This document shows, in pieces, positions 374-5,689 of a DNA stretch of 32,000 bases. The stretch is from Kineococcus radiotolerans SRS30216 = ATCC BAA-149 (lineage in GTDB: Bacteria; Actinomycetota; Actinomycetes; Actinomycetales; Kineococcaceae): positions 2,100,001-2,132,000 of the forward strand of contig NC_009664.2 in NCBI RefSeq assembly GCF_000017305.1. The letters run 5' to 3'. The number at the start of each line of letters is the position of its first letter. Within the stretch, counting starts at the first letter, position 1. The translations under genes were made by a program, and so were the position numbers. Under the pieces are notes generated by a model that searched no databases, was not told where the DNA came from, and saw nothing but the letters and a program-made list of their open reading frames with translations.

Positions 374-1027
374 TCAGCGGCGGTCCAGCCGCAGGACCCC
401 GTCCTGGCCGGCGGCGGTGCTCCCGTCCTCGCCGGTGGTGGTCCGCTCGACCAGCAGCTCGCGCGCGACGGTCCACTCCGCCTCGGGCAGGGCGAGGCGC
501 CGGCGCAGCTCGCCGGGGGAGGGCAGGTCGACCTCGGCGCCCTCGGCCCGCCAGCGCGCGGCCTGCTCCTCGGGGACGACGTGGTGGCCCAGGACGAGCA
601 GCGACCCGCCGGGGGCGACGGACCGCGCGGCGCGCGCGAGTACGGCCGTGCGGTCCAGGAAGGCGAAGGAGTGCAGGAAGGAGGCGGTGACGAGGTCGAA
701 GAGCCCCTCGGGGAAGGACTGCCCGAGGTCGTGGCGCTCGAAGCGGGTCAGGTCCCCGACCCCGGCCTCGGCGGCGTGGGCGGCGGCCCGGGCGATCGCG
801 GTGTCGGAGACGTCGACGCCGGTGACGCGCCAGCCGAGGCGGGCCAGGTGCAGGACGTCGCCGCCCTCCCCGCAGCCGAGGTCCAGGGCGGTCCCGGGGG
901 TGAGGTCGGCGATCGCGTCGACGAGGGCGGGGTTGGGGCGGCCGCTCCAGACGTGGCCGTGGCCGGAGGAGTACATCCCCTCCCACAGTTCGCGGGCGTC
1001 CCGGGCGGTGAGGTCGAAGTTCGGCAC
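374..1027 (-). CDS. Class I SAM-dependent methyltransferase
   Basis: 217-aa ORF with a GTG start at 1027. SAM-binding motif I is LDLGCGEGGD, followed by VTGVDVS, DLVTASFLHSF and PGGSLLVLG. Strong GC3 bias. Confidence 0.85.
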   Translation of the reverse strand: MPNFDLTARDARELWEGMYSSGHGHVWSGRPNPALVDAIADLTPGTALDLGCGEGGDVLHLARLGWRVTGVDVSDTAIARAAAHAAEAGVGDLTRFERHDLGQSFPEGLFDLVTASFLHSFAFLDRTAVLARAARSVAPGGSLLVLGHHVVPEEQAARWRAEGAEVDLPSPGELRRRLALPEAEWTVARELLVERTTTGEDGSTAAGQDGVLRLDRR

Positions 1028-1090
1028 CCCCCGATCGTGCGGCCCGCGCGCCGCGCGGTCGAGCCTCCTTGCCGACTCGGCAAGACCCGG

Positions 1091-1130
1091 CGGGACGGGG
1101 CGGGACGGGGCGGGACGGGGCGGGACGGGG
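1091..1130. repeat. Perfect tandem decamer CGGGACGGGG x4 (degenerate copies extend to ~1088-1140); G-quadruplex-capable
   Basis: Read directly: cgggacgggg cgggacgggg cgggacgggg cgggacgggg cggggcggcg. It lies in the 155-bp divergent intergenic region between the methyltransferase start (1027) and the ORF at 1183. Confidence 0.9.
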
Positions 1131-1145
1131 CGGGGCGGCGACGCG

Positions 1146-1174
1146 TCGACGGCGGGGCGCGTCGCACCTACACT
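1146..1174 (+). promoter_or_regulatory. Candidate housekeeping-type promoter: TCGACG (-35) N17 TACACT (-10), 8 nt before ATG 1183 (leaderless mRNA implied)
   Basis: -35-like TCGACG at 1146-1151 and a TAnnnT -10 (TACACT) at 1169-1174, with a 17-nt spacer. There is no Shine-Dalgarno before the ATG. An in-frame TGA at 1174-1176 means ATG 1183 is the first possible start. Confidence 0.3.
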
Positions 1175-1182
1175 GACGTTTC

Positions 1183-1503
1183 ATGCACGAAGGATCGTCG
1201 TCGGACGCGGCGCAGACCCCGCGCTCGCTGCAGCGTCCCCGGTCCCGCAACCGCTTCGTGGACCTCTTCCTCGACGCGGCGTTCAGCTTCACCGGCCCCG
1301 CCCAGGTGTCCCGGGACGAGGCACCCCCGCGCGGGCCGCGCACCGAGGAGGAGGCGCGAGCCGGGTACGCCCAGTGGGAACGGGTGACCCGCGGCGGCCA
1401 CACCTACCTCGTCGAGCGCCGGGTCCCCGCCGAGGACCCGGGCGAACCCGCAGGATCCGGGGAACCCGGGGAACCCGGGAGCTCCAGCACCTCCAGCAGC
1501 TGA
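1183..1503 (+). CDS. Hypothetical small protein (106 aa), no recognisable family
   Basis: About 90% G/C at third codon positions in this frame, whereas the antisense ORF 1168-1401 looks like noise. The last 100 nt overlap the 3' end of the convergent ligase gene. The C-terminal GEP/SS-rich tail may be non-functional. Confidence 0.4.
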   Translation: MHEGSSSDAAQTPRSLQRPRSRNRFVDLFLDAAFSFTGPAQVSRDEAPPRGPRTEEEARAGYAQWERVTRGGHTYLVERRVPAEDPGEPAGSGEPGEPGSSSTSSS

Positions 1504-2429
1504 TCGAACCCCCGGCCGATCGCCTCCCCGTCGATCGACCCGGGCAGGATCCGCACCTCCAGCACGTCGGGGCCCGGGCGCACGCCGAGGACCCGGGTGA
1601 GGTTCACGTCACTGAACTTCGTCACCCCCGTGCGGGCCGCGACCGCGCGCAGCGACGCCCAGTCCGGCCAGTCGGCGCGGACGAGTTCCACCAGGTCCGC
1701 GGGCAGCGACCCCAGCCGGGTGCAGCGCGGGTTGGTCCCGAACCGCTCCCGGAGCTCCTCGCGCCGCCCGGCGAAGGTGGACACGACGTGGCGGAACCTG
1801 GCCACGTCCCGGAACGGCCCGGCGTCGAGGTTCACGTGGACGGCCGCCTCGGCCGGGACGGTGAAACCCAGGTCCCGCGCGGGGGCGAGCAGTTCCTCCA
1901 GGTGCCGGACGTGGTCGCGCTCCCAGGGCGGGGTCACGACCTCGCAGGGGCGTTCGCGCTCCCCCGGCAGCGGGGCCGCCATCGCGATCGTCGCCCCGGC
2001 GCCGTCGTCGAGCCGGCGCACGCCCCGCACCTCGCGGACCGGTGCGCCGAACAGTTCCGCCACCGGGTCCAGCACCGACCCGATCCCCTCCGCCGGGTCG
2101 GCGTGGCGCTCGACGAGGCGCAGCAGGCGGGGGTCGTCGCTGAGGACCCGGTACCAGCCCGGGCGCGGCGGCGCGCCCGCGTCGAGGTCGGCGACGATCG
2201 TGGTGTCGTCCACCAGCGAGCACACCGGTGCCCCCGCCGCGTCGACGACGTCGAAGGCGGGGGTGAGGTGCCAGAACGCCGCCACCCCCGGCGTCGCGGA
2301 CGCCTCGGTGTCGACGTGGAACCTTCGGCGCACCGATCCCCCTGCGCGGGAGGCGATCTCCTGCGCGAGGTCGAGCCTGCTCGCCCCCGCGGGGGCGAGC
2401 AGCTCGACCTCGAAACCGGCGCGCACCAC
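1404..2429 (-). CDS. Glutamine-synthetase-like COOH-NH2 ligase of the putative amidoligase family (Pfam Amidoligase_2-like)
   Basis: 341 aa with a GTG start at 2429, 1 nt after the stop of the upstream gene. Motifs typical of the family: N-terminal GFEVELLAP, CEVVTPPWERDH, AAVHVNLDAGPF, KFSDVNLTRV and LEVRILPGSIDG. Low-complexity C-terminal tail SPGSPDPAGSPGSS. Confidence 0.75.
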   Translation of the reverse strand: MVRAGFEVELLAPAGASRLDLAQEIASRAGGSVRRRFHVDTEASATPGVAAFWHLTPAFDVVDAAGAPVCSLVDDTTIVADLDAGAPPRPGWYRVLSDDPRLLRLVERHADPAEGIGSVLDPVAELFGAPVREVRGVRRLDDGAGATIAMAAPLPGERERPCEVVTPPWERDHVRHLEELLAPARDLGFTVPAEAAVHVNLDAGPFRDVARFRHVVSTFAGRREELRERFGTNPRCTRLGSLPADLVELVRADWPDWASLRAVAARTGVTKFSDVNLTRVLGVRPGPDVLEVRILPGSIDGEAIGRGFDQLLEVLELPGSPGSPDPAGSPGSSAGTRRSTR

Positions 2430-2430
2430 G

Positions 2431-2991
2431 TCAGGGGGCGACCGGCAGGGTCTCGCCCGCGAGCAGGTCGCGCCCGCCGGTGACCTTCGCCTCCCAGGGG
2501 CTCACGTGCCAGATCCCGCCGAGGGCCACCGCGTCGTCGTAGGTGTACCCGGCGGCGAAGAACGCGTCGACCGCCGTGGACTCCTCCGTCGGGAGCTCGG
2601 AGACGGGAACGGTGGGGGCGGGAGCGGAACTGCCCGGCTCGATCGGCAGCGTCTCCCCCGCGGCCAGCTTCTCCCCGCCGGTGACCTTCGCCTCCCACGA
2701 GTCCTGCGCCCACTGCTTCCCGAGGACGACGGCGTCGTCGTAGGTGTAGCCCGCGTCGAAGAACACCTCGCGCGAGGCCTGGTCGGGGTCGACGGGTTCG
2801 TCGACGAACCCCGCGGGGGGCGCCTCTACGGCGGGGGCGGTGCTCGCCGCGCGGACGGGTTCCACGTCGGCGGAGTTGGCGTTCGCGTAGGCGGTGCCGC
2901 CGGCGAGGGCGATGCCCCCGGCCACGACGGTCGCAGTGACGATCCGCGCCGCGCGCCGGTTCGCCGGGGTCCTGGTCTCGTTGTCGCTCAT
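2431..2991 (-). CDS. Secreted or membrane-anchored protein with two copies of an unassigned ~43-aa Trp/Tyr-rich repeat (gene B)
   Basis: The internal ATG at 2991 of track ORF 2431-3522 gives 186 aa: MSDNETRTPANRRAARIVTATVVAGGIALAGGTAYA/NANS... (hydrophobic segment ending in AxA). Repeats at aa 74-116 and 141-183. The longer ORF version would overlap gene A and reads as Arg/Gly noise. Confidence 0.75.
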   Translation of the reverse strand: MSDNETRTPANRRAARIVTATVVAGGIALAGGTAYANANSADVEPVRAASTAPAVEAPPAGFVDEPVDPDQASREVFFDAGYTYDDAVVLGKQWAQDSWEAKVTGGEKLAAGETLPIEPGSSAPAPTVPVSELPTEESTAVDAFFAAGYTYDDAVALGGIWHVSPWEAKVTGGRDLLAGETLPVAP

Positions 2992-3000
2992 GCCGGGGAA

Positions 3001-3027
3001 GACGACGCGGGGGGCGGCGGGGTTGCC
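3001..3027 (-). promoter_or_regulatory. ECF-type promoter in front of gene B: GGCAAC (3027-3022) N17 CGTC (3004-3001), 9 nt before ATG 2991
   Basis: Minus-strand reading: GGCAACcccgccgccccccgcgtCGTCttccccggcATG. The geometry is identical, and the sequence nearly identical, to the element upstream of the sigma gene. Confidence 0.55.
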
Positions 3028-3032
3028 CCGGT

Positions 3033-3515
3033 TCACCGGGGGACCGGGAGTTCGTCGCCGTTCTGCAGCGCCTGCCCGCCGAGGGCCTTGGCCTCCCACG
3101 GGTCGACGTTCCAGAGCTCGCCCAGGGGCACCGCGTCCTCGTACACGTACCCCGAGTCGAAGAACACGTCCCGCGCGGCCTCCGCGTCCATCACCAGCAC
3201 CGGCGGTTCCGTCGCCACCCGTGACGCCTCGGGCGCCGGCGCCGTCGGGACGGGCGAGGTCACCGCGGTGCTCGACGGGGTCCCCGCCGGGGCGAGGGCC
3301 GGTGGCGGGGCGGAGCGGCTCGTGCCCGCCCACACCGCTCCCCCCGCGACGACGAGCGCGGCGGGCAGCGTCGCCAGCGCGCGCCGGCGCCGCAGCCGTC
3401 GCCGGCCCCCCTCGCGCGCGGCGCCGAGGAGGCCGTCCCCCGCCCGCACGTCGCGCACCGACGCGTCGAGCTCGCGACGCAGCCGGTCCTCCCAGCCGCT
3501 CAGCCGTTCGTCCAC
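3033..3515 (-). CDS. Single-pass membrane protein, candidate anti-sigma factor, with one copy of the ~43-aa repeat (gene A)
   Basis: 160 aa. GTG start at 3515 overlaps the sigma gene by 16 nt. Domain order: Arg-rich N-terminus (RRRLRRRR), TM helix ALATLPAALVVAGGAVWAG, Pro/Ala/Thr linker, then C-terminal repeat RDVFFDSGYVYEDAVPLGELWNVDPWEAKALGGQALQNGDELP. No HxxxCxxC zinc motif. Confidence 0.75.
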   Translation of the reverse strand: MDERLSGWEDRLRRELDASVRDVRAGDGLLGAAREGGRRRLRRRRALATLPAALVVAGGAVWAGTSRSAPPPALAPAGTPSSTAVTSPVPTAPAPEASRVATEPPVLVMDAEAARDVFFDSGYVYEDAVPLGELWNVDPWEAKALGGQALQNGDELPVPR

Positions 3516-4009
3516 CGCGCACCCACCCCTTCTCCGCTCGGCTCCCCCACCAGTGCCCGCAACGAGGCCAGCCCCTTGGAGGCCTGGCTCTTGACCGTCC
3601 CGCGCGTCACGTCGAGCTGGTCGGCGATCTGCTCCTCCGACCAGTCCTCGAAGTAGCGCAGGACGATGACGGCCCGCTGCCGCGGGGGCAGCCGGCGCAG
3701 CGCCTCGACGACCCGGGACCGTTCAGCGCGCTCGGCGGTGCCGTCGGGCACCGCCCGGTCGTGGTGGTCCTCGAAGCCGACCTCGCGGGGGCGGCGCGCC
3801 CGCGCCCGCCACCGGTCGGTGACCTTGCGGGTCAGGGCCGTGCGCGCGTAGGCGTGCGGGTCCTCGATGCGCCGCCAGCGGACGTACATCCGCTCCAGGA
3901 CGTCCTGGAGCAGGTCCTCGGCGTGACCGCGGTCCCCGGTCAGGAGCAGCGCGAAGCCCAGCAGCCGGTCGCTGCCGGTGCTCACGAACTCCTCGAAGGA
4001 ACCTTCCAC
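3500..4009 (-). CDS. ECF (sigma-70 group 4) RNA polymerase sigma factor, actinobacterial SigE-like
   Basis: 169 aa with a GTG start at 4009. Region 2 reads DRGHAEDLLQDVLERMYVRWRRI. Region 4 reads LPPRQRAVIVLRYFEDWSEEQIADQLDVTRGTVKSQASKGLASLR. Confidence 0.9.
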   Translation of the reverse strand: MEGSFEEFVSTGSDRLLGFALLLTGDRGHAEDLLQDVLERMYVRWRRIEDPHAYARTALTRKVTDRWRARARRPREVGFEDHHDRAVPDGTAERAERSRVVEALRRLPPRQRAVIVLRYFEDWSEEQIADQLDVTRGTVKSQASKGLASLRALVGEPSGEGVGARWTNG

Positions 4010-4018
4010 ACCGTTGCA

Positions 4019-4045
4019 GACGTCCGGGGGGCCCGCGGGGTTGCC
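4019..4045 (-). promoter_or_regulatory. ECF-type (autoregulatory) promoter: GGCAAC (4045-4040) N17 CGTC (4022-4019), 9 nt before GTG 4009
   Basis: Minus-strand reading: GGCAACcccgcgggccccccggaCGTCtgcaacggtGTG. This fits the classic ECF -35 GGAAC-like / -10 CGTC architecture. Confidence 0.55.
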
Positions 4046-4086
4046 TCGGAGCGCGGACCGGTCGCCGGTGCAGTCCGCGGCGGGGG

Positions 4087-4134
4087 TCGACGGCGCAAAC
4101 GGATAGTGCTACTTTCCGATAGTGCGAGTATCCG
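4087..4134 (+). promoter_or_regulatory. merR-family gene promoter/operator: TCGACG N17 TACTTT, 6 nt before GTG 4122, flanked by direct repeats GATAGTGC and an inverted repeat CGGATA/TATCCG
   Basis: -35-like element at 4087-4092 and -10 TAnnnT at 4110-4115. GATAGTGC occurs at 4102-4109 and 4118-4125 (the second copy contains the start codon). CGGATA at 4100-4105 pairs with TATCCG at 4129-4134. This is the lowest-GC patch of the intergenic region. Confidence 0.35.
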
Positions 4135-4769
4135 AGTTGGCCGAGCGAGCGGGCGTCCCCCTCTCCGCCGTGAAGTACTACCAGCGCGAGGGGCTGCTGC
4201 CCCCCGGCGTCCGGACCGCCCCCAACCAGGTCGCCTACGGCGACCCGCACGTGCGGCGCGTCCGGCTCATCCGCGCCCTCCTGGAGACGGGGGGCCTCTC
4301 CGTGGCGGCCACGAAGGAGGTCGTCGCCGCCCTCGACGCCGACGCGGCCCCGCTCGCCGAGGCGTTCGGCGTCACCCAGCGCGCCATGAGCGCCCGGCGC
4401 ACCCAGGAGTCCACGCCGAGCGCGGCCGCCCGCGCCCGCGTCGAGGCGCTCGCCGCCGCCCGCGGCTGGAACGTCACCGCCGGCAACCCCGGCGTCGACG
4501 CCGCCGCCCGCGCCCTCGACGGGCTGCGCGCCATCGGCTTCGACGCCCCCGACGCCTACCTCGAGGCCTACGCGGCCGCGGCCGCCACCGCCGCCGCCGC
4601 CGACCTCCACGCGCTCGCCGGGCGCGGTGACCGCGACGCCGTCGCGGAGCTCATGGTCGTCGGGACCGTCCTCGGCGACCCGCTCTTCGCCGGTCTGCGC
4701 CGCCTCGCCCACGAGGACGCCACCCACGCCCTCCTCCCCGCCCCCGAGCAGGAACGAGCCGAACCGTGA
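4122..4769 (+). CDS. MerR family transcriptional regulator
   Basis: 215 aa. N-terminal winged HTH: MRVSELAERAGVPLSAVKYYQREGLLPPGVRTAPNQVAYGDPHVRRVRLIRALLETGGLSVAATKEVV. Confidence 0.85.
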   Translation: MRVSELAERAGVPLSAVKYYQREGLLPPGVRTAPNQVAYGDPHVRRVRLIRALLETGGLSVAATKEVVAALDADAAPLAEAFGVTQRAMSARRTQESTPSAAARARVEALAAARGWNVTAGNPGVDAAARALDGLRAIGFDAPDAYLEAYAAAAATAAAADLHALAGRGDRDAVAELMVVGTVLGDPLFAGLRRLAHEDATHALLPAPEQERAEP

Positions 4770-5689
4770 TCCCACCCGCGCACGTCGTCCTCGGCGGCAA
4801 CGGCGTCGTCGGCCGCGAGACCCTCCGGGCCCTCCTCGCCGCCGGCCACGTCCCGGCCTCCGTCGGCCGCCGACCCCCCGCCGTCGAGGGGGTCGTGCCC
4901 GTCACCGCCGACCTCCTCGACCCCGCCGACGTCACCCGCGCCCTGCACGGGGCCGAGGTCGCCTACCTGGTGGCGGGACTGCCCTACTCCTCCCGCACGT
5001 GGGCGCGGCAGTGGCCGGTGATCGTCGGCAACGTCGCCGACGCCGCGCTCGCCGAGGGCACCCACCTCGTGCACCTCGACAACGTCTACGCCTACGGCCG
5101 CGTCGAGGGCGCCATGACCGAGGACACCCCGATCGCCCCGGTCAGCCGGAAGGGCCGCGTCCGGGCCGCCGCGCTGGACCTCCTCGCCGCCGCCGCCGCC
5201 CGCGGGCTCGTCGTGACCACCGCGCGCAGCGCCGACTTCTACGGCCCCGGCGCCTCGACCAGCGCGTTCAACACCTTCGCCCTGGACCGGATCGCCGCCG
5301 GGCGCACCGGCACCTGGCTCCTCGACGCCGACCAGCCCCACTCCCTCACCTACACCCCCGACGTCGGCGACGCCCTCGCCGTCCTCGGCACCGCGCCGCA
5401 GGCCCGCGGCCGCACCTGGCACCTGCCCACCGCCCCCGCCCTCACCGGCCGCGAGCACGTCCGTCTCGCCGCCGGCCCCGACGCCCGGACCGCCGTCATG
5501 GGCCTCACCGCGCTGCGGATCGGGGCCCTCTTCTCCACCGCCGCCCGCGAGACCCTGGAGATGAGCTACCAGCACACCGCCCCGTACGTCTTCGACTCCA
5601 CCGCCTTCGAGACCGCCTTCGGCCTCACCCCCACCCCGGCGGCGGAGGGCGTCGCCGCGGCGCTGGCCGCGGCGCGAGCGGGCTCGTGA
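4766..5689 (+). CDS. NAD(P)-binding epimerase/dehydratase-type (atypical SDR / NmrA-like) protein
   Basis: 307 aa. Rossmann motif VVLGGNGVVGRETLRALLAAGH. The GTG start overlaps the merR-family stop (GTGA at 4766-4769). Confidence 0.8.
   Translation: MIPPAHVVLGGNGVVGRETLRALLAAGHVPASVGRRPPAVEGVVPVTADLLDPADVTRALHGAEVAYLVAGLPYSSRTWARQWPVIVGNVADAALAEGTHLVHLDNVYAYGRVEGAMTEDTPIAPVSRKGRVRAAALDLLAAAAARGLVVTTARSADFYGPGASTSAFNTFALDRIAAGRTGTWLLDADQPHSLTYTPDVGDALAVLGTAPQARGRTWHLPTAPALTGREHVRLAAGPDARTAVMGLTALRIGALFSTAARETLEMSYQHTAPYVFDSTAFETAFGLTPTPAAEGVAAALAAARAGS

Follow-up and report, generated by a model that had tools for sequence, protein, structure and literature searches.

Predicted ECF-type promoters conserved upstream of a SigE-family sigma factor gene and a repeat-protein gene in Kineococcus radiotolerans

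In Kineococcus radiotolerans SRS30216, two short motifs resembling ECF promoters occur on the minus strand of one operon, the first ahead of an ECF sigma factor gene and the second ahead of a downstream gene, here called gene B. The locus raises the question of whether both motifs act as promoters, and whether the sigma factor encoded between them is the one that reads them. We consider it most likely, at a probability of roughly 0.8, that they are two functional ECF-type promoters of the form rGGCAACc-N17-CGTCt read by the sigma factor of 3500-4009, which very probably would switch on itself and its neighbours.

The operon and its two motifs

The window, i.e. the whole 32-kb stretch of DNA that was analysed, contains the following features, with P_sig and P_B denoting the sites upstream of the sigma gene and of gene B.

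4040-4045, minus strand: -35 element of P_sig, GGCAAC (extended aGGCAACc); read directly, without variation in all 12 sigma loci of the Kineococcus clade
4019-4022, minus strand: -10 element of P_sig, CGTC, then T, 17 nt past the -35 element; read directly, invariant in orthologues
4007-4009, minus strand: start codon (GTG) of the sigma gene, with transcription predicted to begin at base 4009, the first of the codon
3500-4009, minus strand: ECF sigma factor gene, 169 aa, SigE family; Pfam and NCBIfam profiles
3033-3515, minus strand: putative single-pass membrane anti-sigma factor, 160 aa; open reading frame, gene order and topology
about 3042-3179, minus strand: C-terminal repeat domain of the putative anti-sigma factor; HMM mapping
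3022-3027, minus strand: -35 element of P_B, GGCAAC; read directly, unchanged in all ten loci that have gene B as a separate gene
3001-3004, minus strand: -10 element of P_B, CGTC, then T, 17 nt past the -35 element; read directly and found by pattern search
2989-2991, minus strand: start codon (ATG) of gene B, with transcription predicted to begin at base 2991, the first of the codon
2431-2991, minus strand: gene B, 186 aa; open reading frame, homologue alignment, repeat HMM and AlphaFold2 model
about 2632-2781 and 2434-2577, minus strand: repeat copies of gene B; HMM mapping
1404-2429, minus strand: Amidoligase_2 family gene, 341 aa; Pfam PF12224

The gene order is thus sigma factor, putative membrane anti-sigma factor, gene B and Amidoligase_2 enzyme. 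The product of 3500-4009 is an ECF (group 4) sigma factor of the SigE family TIGR02983: the Pfam domains Sigma70_r2 and Sigma70_r4_2 are the sole sigma domains present, and the score against NCBIfam TIGR02983 ('SigE-fam_strep') is 170.2 bits (cutoff 141.55, 3e-50). The closest solved structure is that of M. tuberculosis SigL (6dv9). The gene of the 160-aa protein overlaps the sigma stop by 16 nt, and its counterpart follows the sigma gene in most of 29 related loci. [quoted passage not shown] Gene order, translational overlap with the sigma gene and topology mark it as a putative anti-sigma factor. Gene B encodes a paralogue of the outer part of this protein, with an N-terminal hydrophobic helix (signal peptide or anchor) and two repeats of ~45 aa, each of which forms a three-helix bundle with pLDDT above 90 in an AlphaFold2 model. 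The repeat domain had no significant match in Pfam, in NCBIfam or, using the AlphaFold2 model, in Foldseek against the PDB (best E-value 1.0). The gene that a preliminary description of this DNA had called a ligase is indeed present downstream of gene B, starts 1 nt past its stop codon and encodes specifically an Amidoligase_2 protein (PF12224; 50.6 bits, cutoff 22, E = 3e-13 in Pfam). An amidoligase gene lies immediately 3' of the repeat protein in 28 of 29 related loci, L024 being the exception. No two-component genes adjoin the sigma operon.

Read on the minus strand, P_sig consists of GGCAAC (4045-4040), the 17-nt spacer cccgcgggccccccgga, CGTC (4022-4019) and tgcaacggt, followed by GTG (4009-4007). 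P_B consists of GGCAAC (3027-3022), the 17-nt spacer cccgccgccccccgcgt, CGTC (3004-3001) and ttccccggc, followed by ATG (2991-2989). The arrangement GGCAAC-N17-CGTC-N9-start codon, as first described, is thus exact at both sites (4045-4007 and 3027-2989), and neither 9-nt stretch contains the Shine-Dalgarno-like run whose absence had been remarked upon. Both sites have the bipartite form of ECF promoters, with an AAC-bearing -35 element, a CGT(C)-bearing -10 element and a spacing within 16-18 nt. The -35 element of P_B begins 5 nt past the anti-sigma stop codon (TGA, 3035-3033), and the 41 nt that separate the anti-sigma gene from gene B are nearly filled by P_B.

A search of the window for the exact pattern, covering both strands, gave two matches, namely these sites, with 0.12 expected; one of 100 dinucleotide shuffles of the window reached two. 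Scored with a position weight matrix derived for the most part from orthologous sites, the two sites reach 24.5 and 26.5 bits. The next best score in the window is 11.2, compared with a mean maximum of 13.6 (highest 19.3) in shuffled windows, so that the window holds no third site. None was returned by the exact pattern, by a relaxed pattern with three mismatches or by the weight matrix with 16-18-nt spacers, so pattern search and weight matrix agree with the earlier statement that no third GGCAAC-N17-CGTC exists on either strand. A plus-strand GGAAC-N18-CGTC at 3998-4022 scored 10.1 bits, below the shuffle maxima, and was dismissed as a chance match. Positions 1000-4800 yielded nothing in a scan for sigma-70-type promoters and intrinsic terminators, which is uninformative because the consensus used is of the E. 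coli type whereas the host is an actinobacterium with 76% G+C.

The two elements had also been called near-identical. This is accurate for the -35 element, the -10 element and the spacer length, but overstated for the spacers themselves, which are identical at only 12 of 17 bases. Such identity is above random for the base composition (P about 0.008); in other genomes the spacers of P_sig and P_B have just 6-13 of 17 bases in common. Their likeness reflects a weak common consensus (C-rich past the -35 element, G two bases before CGTC) and not identity of the whole elements. A recent duplication of one promoter was considered as the source of the 12 identical bases and rejected: mean spacer identity is 10.0 within genomes versus 9.0 between genomes, and within-genome identity goes down to 6-9 of 17 in four genomes.

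Conservation and start codons

Scans of the window were extended to related loci of about 8 kb each. GGCAAC-N17-CGTC is kept in all 12 Kineococcus-clade sigma loci and in all ten loci with a separate gene B, and P_B was found only where gene B is a separate gene. Over 11 sigma sites and nine gene B sites, the -35 and -10 elements are 100% identical, while identity is 54-61% in the spacer, 41-47% in the upstream 20 nt and 48-71% in the N9 stretch. A G two bases 5' of CGTC occurs in 20 of 20 sites and a T just 3' of CGTC in 17 of 20. The related loci, about 0.5 Mb with both strands included, contain 25 exact matches, of which 22 are at these two positions and three are unrelated to them. It is extremely improbable that the two sites lack a function and reflect a short G+C-rich pattern turning up twice by chance in a genome of 76% G+C. 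The pattern fixes only 10 bases, two matches also arose in one of the 100 window shuffles, and three unrelated exact matches exist elsewhere in the related loci; however, exactly 9 nt separate each site from the start codon that follows, the genes concerned are neighbours in one operon, and the sites are invariant across 10-12 species in which the surrounding DNA is down to 41-61% identity. At the level of sequence, conservation effectively refutes the chance reading and confirms the observation of two evolutionarily conserved ECF-type promoters.

For P_B, the DNA could alternatively be coding. Gene B would then have its start at GTG 3036, within a GTGA that also holds the anti-sigma stop, the bases 3001-3027 would encode Gly-Asn-Pro ... 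Val-Phe, and N-terminal peptides would cover NRGNPAAPRVVFPG. The frame is open from GTG 3036, and public records of K. radiotolerans and three close relatives annotate products of 201-220 aa. However, 15 of the 19 retrieved gene B homologues in alignment A1 have as their first residue the Met that corresponds to ATG 2991, this residue (M16) is invariant in A1, and the N-terminal extension is missing from most orthologues. Three loci (L002, L027, L028) have no in-frame start upstream of the gene B ATG and yet keep GGCAAC-N17-CGTC-N9-ATG; in L027, an in-frame stop lies 18 nt upstream, inside the promoter. Moreover, the hexamer and the tetramer alone are conserved while the codons between them vary freely, and the same motif precedes the sigma gene in clearly non-coding DNA. 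A start at GTG 3036 was ruled out by the homologue starts and the missing upstream starts in relatives, which makes the coding reading very unlikely. Since three genomes lack any in-frame upstream start, the public 201-aa annotation, which covers the promoter, is wrong. These comparisons indicate that P_B is non-coding, that gene B starts at 2991 and not at 3036, and that public annotation also sets the starts of some sigma orthologues wrongly. In the sigma factor itself, the TIGR02983 alignment begins at residue 2, and the same GTG serves as the start in orthologues.

The N9 distance is kept at ten of ten gene B sites (always N9-ATG) and at eight of 12 sigma sites. Four species (L003, L004, L009, L012) keep the motif before the sigma gene and place a ~30-nt leader with AGGAGG behind it, which indicates that the motif is independent of the start codon. 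According to a published rule for ECF promoters, transcription starts at the 9th or 10th nt past the flipped -10 base, at a pyrimidine-purine pair (PMC7776599). At both sites, the start codon begins with the 10th nt past CGTC, and a pyrimidine precedes it (c before A, t before G), so the rule predicts +1 on the A of ATG 2991 and on the G of GTG 4009. In the open-complex scaffold of sigma-H, 8 nt separate GTT from +1 (PMC6411747). The SigL structure paper numbers CGT '-14 to -12', which would shift +1 one base later, and with this nominal numbering the predicted start is uncertain by about 1-2 nt. Transcription would begin at the first base of each start codon or no more than 1-3 nt away from it. 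With such a start, both mRNAs would be leaderless and need no Shine-Dalgarno sequence. The hallmarks of leaderless genes, i.e. no Shine-Dalgarno sequence and a -10 element about 6-10 nt before the start codon, are present at both sites. The leaderless or near-leaderless mRNAs envisaged in the preliminary description are thus supported by a geometry that agrees with the published rule (PMC7776599), from which the start sites are predicted.

Proposed regulation

The ECF architecture ascribed to the motifs fits the gene behind P_sig, which encodes a SigE-family ECF sigma factor, and the motif matches sigma-E promoters of S. coelicolor that were validated by S1 mapping and in vitro transcription (PMC6767563), such as that of hrdD (GGCAACCC...-CGTCTT; PMC6767563). 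Distant relatives of the sigma factor (~40% identity) carry [TC][GA]CAC-N17-C[GA]TCT once per locus, 7-8 nt before GTG. A different motif at the same place in a distant clade would be as expected if each sigma factor reads its own promoter. The motif thus shifts with the sigma clade (AAC/CGTC in Kineococcus, CAC/C[GA]TCT in the distant relatives) and always lies directly upstream of the sigma gene, and in every genome P_B stays with this operon. About half of ECF sigma factors autoregulate, and leaderless ECF promoters have been reported in Actinobacteria (PMC7776599); ECF sigma factors are also said to 'usually autoregulate' (PMC7826278), and autoregulation is the standard route to finding such promoters. 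These points argue against an unlikely alternative, in which the sites are genuine ECF promoters read by another SigE-family sigma factor of the same genome and the adjacent sigma gene is a cascade target that is not autoregulated. This alternative draws on S. coelicolor, where GGCAAC-N17-CGTCT is the general sigma-E consensus, several ECF sigma factors recognise the same promoters, and most such promoters depend just partly on one sigma factor (PMC6767563). Because the motif is common to other SigE-type sigma factors, a paralogous ECF sigma factor could read one or both sites, and Actinobacteria average about 18 ECF sigma factors per genome (PMC7826278). Furthermore, transcription of S. coelicolor sigE depends on a two-component system and not on sigma-E itself, so membership of the SigE family does not guarantee autoregulation.

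Recognition by the adjacent sigma factor remains the preferred reading. The original proposal, autoregulation together with a second promoter serving gene B and the ligase, is backed by the sequence conservation, by the link of P_B to a separate gene B and by the covariation of motif and clade. P_sig would drive the sigma factor and the co-translated, putative membrane anti-sigma factor in a positive autoregulatory loop. The system's output would be gene B and the Amidoligase_2 gene that is tightly coupled to it, both transcribed from P_B. The inducer may be an envelope or extracellular signal sensed via the three-helix repeats. A broader proposal, which we put forward only tentatively, is that the locus represents an undescribed, widely conserved actinobacterial ECF module composed of a SigE-family sigma factor, a membrane anti-sigma factor with an uncatalogued three-helix repeat-array sensor and a fixed Amidoligase_2 output. 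One Kineococcus lineage might have split the array, and the distal part (gene B) might have gained its own sigma-dependent leaderless promoter, so that a free sensor copy, possibly a decoy or feedback element, would be induced together with the enzyme. A full-text literature search found no paper joining ECF sigma factors with amidoligases, and a search for K. radiotolerans ECF promoters also found none.

The locus flags a conserved module of sigma factor, repeat-bearing anti-sigma factor and amidoligase that is so far uncharacterised, and two start codons are fixed against public annotation. It offers a precise, operator-free promoter pair, rGGCAACc-N17-CGTCt-N9-start, usable to scan Kineococcus genomes for the regulon, and a clean natural example of one ECF promoter that sister species use either with or without a leader. 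It leaves the general picture of ECF regulation as it was: leaderless transcripts in actinobacteria, promoters inside operons and autoregulation are all established, and the locus is a clean but ordinary case of an ECF sigma factor very probably acting on its own operon.

Comparison with known systems

The sigma-E of S. coelicolor (SigE, ECF39) belongs to the same NCBIfam family, TIGR02983. Its targets hrdDp1, cwg, sco2807 and sco2974 carry the same GGCAAC(C)-N17-CGTCT(T), and some targets lie just 4-5 nt from the start codon (PMC6767563, Table 1). S. coelicolor sigE is not autoregulated, has no anti-sigma factor and is under CseBC two-component control, whereas in Kineococcus the motif stands before the sigma gene itself, and a membrane protein is encoded behind that gene, where an anti-sigma factor would be expected. 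The gene set of a SigE/CseABC-type system (cseA, cseB and cseC after the sigma gene, no anti-sigma factor) is not the one found here. Judged by its downstream genes and its own motif, the Kineococcus system is thus SigE-type at the promoter level but not CseABC-type.

In E. coli rpoE-rseA, B. subtilis sigW-rsiW and M. tuberculosis sigL-rslA and sigH-rshA, the sigma gene likewise lies behind a promoter with a -35 AAC and a -10 CGT-type element. These classical autoregulated operons co-transcribe the sigma factor with a membrane anti-sigma factor, and the order is the same here, with a putative anti-sigma factor. Unlike in the classical operons, the extracytoplasmic part of this protein is a novel three-helix repeat, and an internal second promoter precedes the paralogue of the sensor part and the amidoligase. 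Todor et al. 2020 (PMC7776599) found, specifically among Actinobacteria, predicted ECF promoters whose 5'UTR is about 0, and both promoters fit the start-site rule of that study exactly; the initiating base in their study is enriched for A, whereas the sigma gene described here would start with G (GTG). In four sister species, the same promoter is retained and the leaderless arrangement of the sigma gene is replaced by a Shine-Dalgarno leader of ~30 nt.

Organization of the sigma factor operon and its neighbours

The window has a G+C content of 76% and contains a minus-strand operon of four genes, in which two of the encoded proteins share a repeat of about 45 aa:

3500-4009, minus strand: ECF sigma factor, 169 aa, with Sigma70_r2 and Sigma70_r4_2 domains
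3033-3515, minus strand: single-pass membrane protein, 160 aa, overlapping the sigma stop by 16 nt
3042-3179, minus strand: repeat copy at the C-terminus of this membrane protein
2431-2991, minus strand: gene B, 186 aa, with a hydrophobic helix at the N-terminus
2632-2781 and 2434-2577, minus strand: the two repeat copies of gene B
1404-2429, minus strand: Amidoligase_2 protein (PF12224, 3e-13), starting one base past the gene B stop

The sigma factor matches the NCBIfam 'SigE family' (TIGR02983; 170 bits versus a cutoff of 141.6), and its closest solved relative is SigL of M. tuberculosis. No known domain in Pfam or NCBIfam was matched by the 160-aa membrane protein, which is regarded as a putative anti-sigma factor from its position and topology only. 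Gene B shares 99% identity with a K. radiotolerans protein. The three repeat copies share the consensus FFxAGYxYDDAVxLGxxWxxDxWEAKxxGGxxLxxGxxLP, and gene B and the sensor part of the putative anti-sigma factor are paralogues. In an AlphaFold2 model each repeat forms a three-helix bundle (pLDDT >90). A search with this model retrieved no significant PDB match and no Pfam or NCBIfam family matched the repeat, which is contained in approximately 368 database proteins.

Divergent to the operon lie a MerR-family gene (4122-4769) and an epimerase-family gene. A TANNNT-type -10 (TACTTT, 4110-4115) located 6 nt ahead of the GTG start of the MerR-family gene (4122) suggests a leaderless housekeeping-type promoter. 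The plus-strand segment 4101-4135, GGATAGTGCTACTTTCCGATAGTGCGAGTATCC, holds a direct repeat of 16 nt (GATAGTGC...), which extends across the same GTG and is possibly an operator. At its 3' end, the amidoligase gene carries a 9/18-nt tandem repeat (1433-1479, minus strand) coding for a Pro/Gly/Ser-rich tail (PGSPGSPDPAGSPGSS), and a small plus-strand ORF (1183-1503) convergently overlaps this repeat-coding end. Similar small convergent genes have been called in two related loci (L027 and L029). Five perfect-looking copies of a tandem decamer, GGCGGGACGG (1089-1138, 97% matches), sit between the small ORF and a methyltransferase-like ORF (374-1027, minus strand).

Promoter elements and their conservation

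Direct reading of the minus strand located two elements of identical geometry, base for base as in the preliminary description:

P_sig, minus strand, ahead of the sigma gene: GGCAAC 4045-4040, 17 nt, CGTC 4022-4019, 9 nt, GTG 4009
P_B, minus strand, ahead of gene B: GGCAAC 3027-3022, 17 nt, CGTC 3004-3001, 9 nt, ATG 2991

Both strands of the 32-kb window together contain just these two exact matches, against an expectation of 0.12; two matches were reached in 1 of 100 dinucleotide shuffles. An extended pattern with three mismatches allowed revealed no additional sites in the window. A weight matrix based on 20 sites (18 taken from other genomes) assigned 24.5 and 26.5 bits to the two elements. 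Because the runner-up in the window reached 11.2 bits, as compared to maxima averaging 13.6 (top value 19.3) in shuffled windows, the earlier claim that a third site is absent from the window holds. An antisense GGAAC-N18-CGTC (3998-4022, plus strand) directed towards the MerR-family gene overlies the first sigma codons; the palindrome GACGTC is common to it and the -10 of P_sig. With 10.1 bits it stays below the shuffled maxima and thus is probably a chance occurrence.

Loci of about 8 kb were fetched from species-representative genomes via alignment of gene B homologues (26 loci), and three further loci were added by exact-protein look-up. They stem from Kineococcus, Krasilnikovia, and MAGs of Mycobacteriales and Frankiaceae, and most keep the order sigma factor, repeat-bearing membrane protein (2-5 repeat copies per locus), amidoligase. 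In Cellulomonas cellasea and K. vitellinus, by contrast, sigma is encoded downstream of the amidoligase; no sigma match was found at two loci (L024, L025). GGCAAC-N17-CGTC precedes all 12 sigma genes of the Kineococcus clade, whose products are 70-89% identical to the sigma factor in the window. In 10/10 Kineococcus-clade loci that have gene B as a separate gene, a second copy occupies the short gap ahead of it, and the distance from this copy to the ATG is invariably 9 nt. In two other loci (L009, L012) the repeat array resides in one long membrane protein, and both gene B and the second promoter are missing. Of 25 exact matches in approximately 0.5 Mb of locus sequence, counting both strands, 22 fall at these sigma or gene B positions. 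This strong comparative evidence supports the proposed interpretation of both elements as ECF promoters, probably read by the sigma factor of the operon.

Pairwise identity of promoter segments across species
-35 and -10 elements: 1.00
Spacer: 0.54-0.61
20 nt upstream: 0.41-0.47
9 nt between CGTC and start codon: 0.48-0.71

Positions that had not been used for site selection are conserved as well, namely a purine ahead of GGCAAC (20/20 sites), C directly after it (17/20), G two bases ahead of CGTC (20/20), and T directly after it (17/20), giving the working consensus rGGCAACc-N17(..Gn)-CGTCt. The spacers of P_sig and P_B agree at 12 of 17 bases, as originally described, which exceeds random expectation for this composition (P ~0.008). 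The two spacers of one genome share 6 to 13 of 17 bases, and mean identity within genomes (10.0) only just exceeds that between genomes (9.0). The likeness therefore reflects a weak spacer consensus rather than a recent duplication.

Predicted transcription starts and start codons

The final C of CGTC was taken as the flipped-out -10 base, by analogy to the last T of GTT in the sigma-H structure; E. coli sigma-E, with its GTC element, provides a second analogy. Counting from CGTC, position 9 is occupied by c or t and position 10 by the A of ATG 2991 or the G of GTG 4009. Todor et al. located the start site at the 9th/10th nucleotide past the flipped-out base, at a pyrimidine-purine pair (PMC7776599). 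Hence, the predicted +1 of both transcripts coincides with the initial base of the start codon. The spacing in a sigma-H open-complex scaffold, 8 nt from GTT to +1 (PMC6411747), and the nominal SigL numbering bracket the predicted +1 within 1-2 nt. Predicted ECF promoters with a 5'UTR of about zero length occur specifically in Actinobacteria (PMC7776599).

In four relatives (L003, L004, L009, L012) the promoter is followed by a leader of about 30 nt with an AGGAGG Shine-Dalgarno sequence and then by the same sigma GTG (for example, L003 2686-2745). These leaders confirm the sigma start codon and show that the promoter is conserved independently of it. Since they replace the 9 nt, one conserved promoter appears to yield a leaderless sigma mRNA in some sister species and a Shine-Dalgarno-led one in others. 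In L029 (1956-2004) the public gene call places the sigma start at a GTG that precedes the -35 element.

In the public annotation, gene B begins 45 nt further upstream at GTG 3036, a codon that forms GTGA with the anti-sigma stop (2989-3036, minus strand); the resulting 201-aa protein covers P_B. This start is rejected because 15 of 19 retrieved homologues begin at a Met equivalent to ATG 2991, three loci (L002, L027, L028) keep the full motif and the 9 nt before ATG without any in-frame upstream start, and the only conserved residues of the extension, where annotated, are Gly-Asn-Pro (-35) and Val-Phe (-10). In L027 the frame is interrupted by a stop codon 18 nt upstream. Start codons seem to be systematically miscalled because of the leaderless layout.

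Probable autoregulation and comparison with known systems

A second sigma clade (about 40% identity) in Mycobacteriales, Krasilnikovia, and Frankiaceae has a distinct though equivalent element, [TC][GA]CAC-N17-C[GA]TCT, 7-8 nt ahead of the sigma GTG:

About 35-45 nt upstream of sigma in L007, L008, L010, L011, L013, L015-L017, and L019-L022: second-clade element

Each locus carries one copy, confined to the region upstream of sigma, and the -10 of this element divides into CGTCT and CATCT subgroups. In this clade a single long membrane protein carries a 2-5-copy repeat array, and neither gene B nor a second promoter is present. The predicted region 4.2 recognition helix differs by clade (TVKSQASK versus TVRSNASK), an observation on a candidate specificity determinant. 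The promoter type tracks the sigma clade and always lies directly upstream of sigma, as autoregulation would predict.

At rest, the membrane protein would keep the sigma factor inactive. A signal sensed via the three-helix repeats may release sigma, which could then transcribe its own operon from P_sig in a positive feedback, and gene B and the amidoligase from P_B. As gene B lacks a Shine-Dalgarno sequence and P_B takes up nearly the whole 41-nt gap past the anti-sigma stop, efficient translation of gene B probably needs the leaderless P_B transcript rather than read-through from P_sig. Gene B might, speculatively, serve as decoy or co-sensor.

Autoregulated ECF promoters, internal sigma-dependent operon promoters, and actinobacterial leaderless transcripts are known. 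Less ordinary is the module of sigma factor, repeat sensor without Pfam or PDB match, and amidoligase; a literature search found no paper linking ECF sigmas with amidoligases. ECF sigmas 'usually autoregulate' (PMC7826278), and such control has been predicted or reported for about half of them (PMC7776599). Validated sigma-E promoters of S. coelicolor have the same motif as P_sig and P_B, such as those of hrdD (GGCAACCCTCAGGCGGTACGGGC-CGTCTT) and sco2807 (GGCAACCCGAGGGGCGATGCCCG-CGTCTA; PMC6767563). Most of them are only partly sigma-E-dependent and are also read by other ECF sigmas, and sigE is not itself a sigma-E target (PMC6767563). For these reasons, cross-recognition of P_sig and P_B by a paralogous ECF sigma remains the main alternative to autoregulation. 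Whereas S. coelicolor sigE is free of sigma-E control, the sigma gene in the window carries its own motif.
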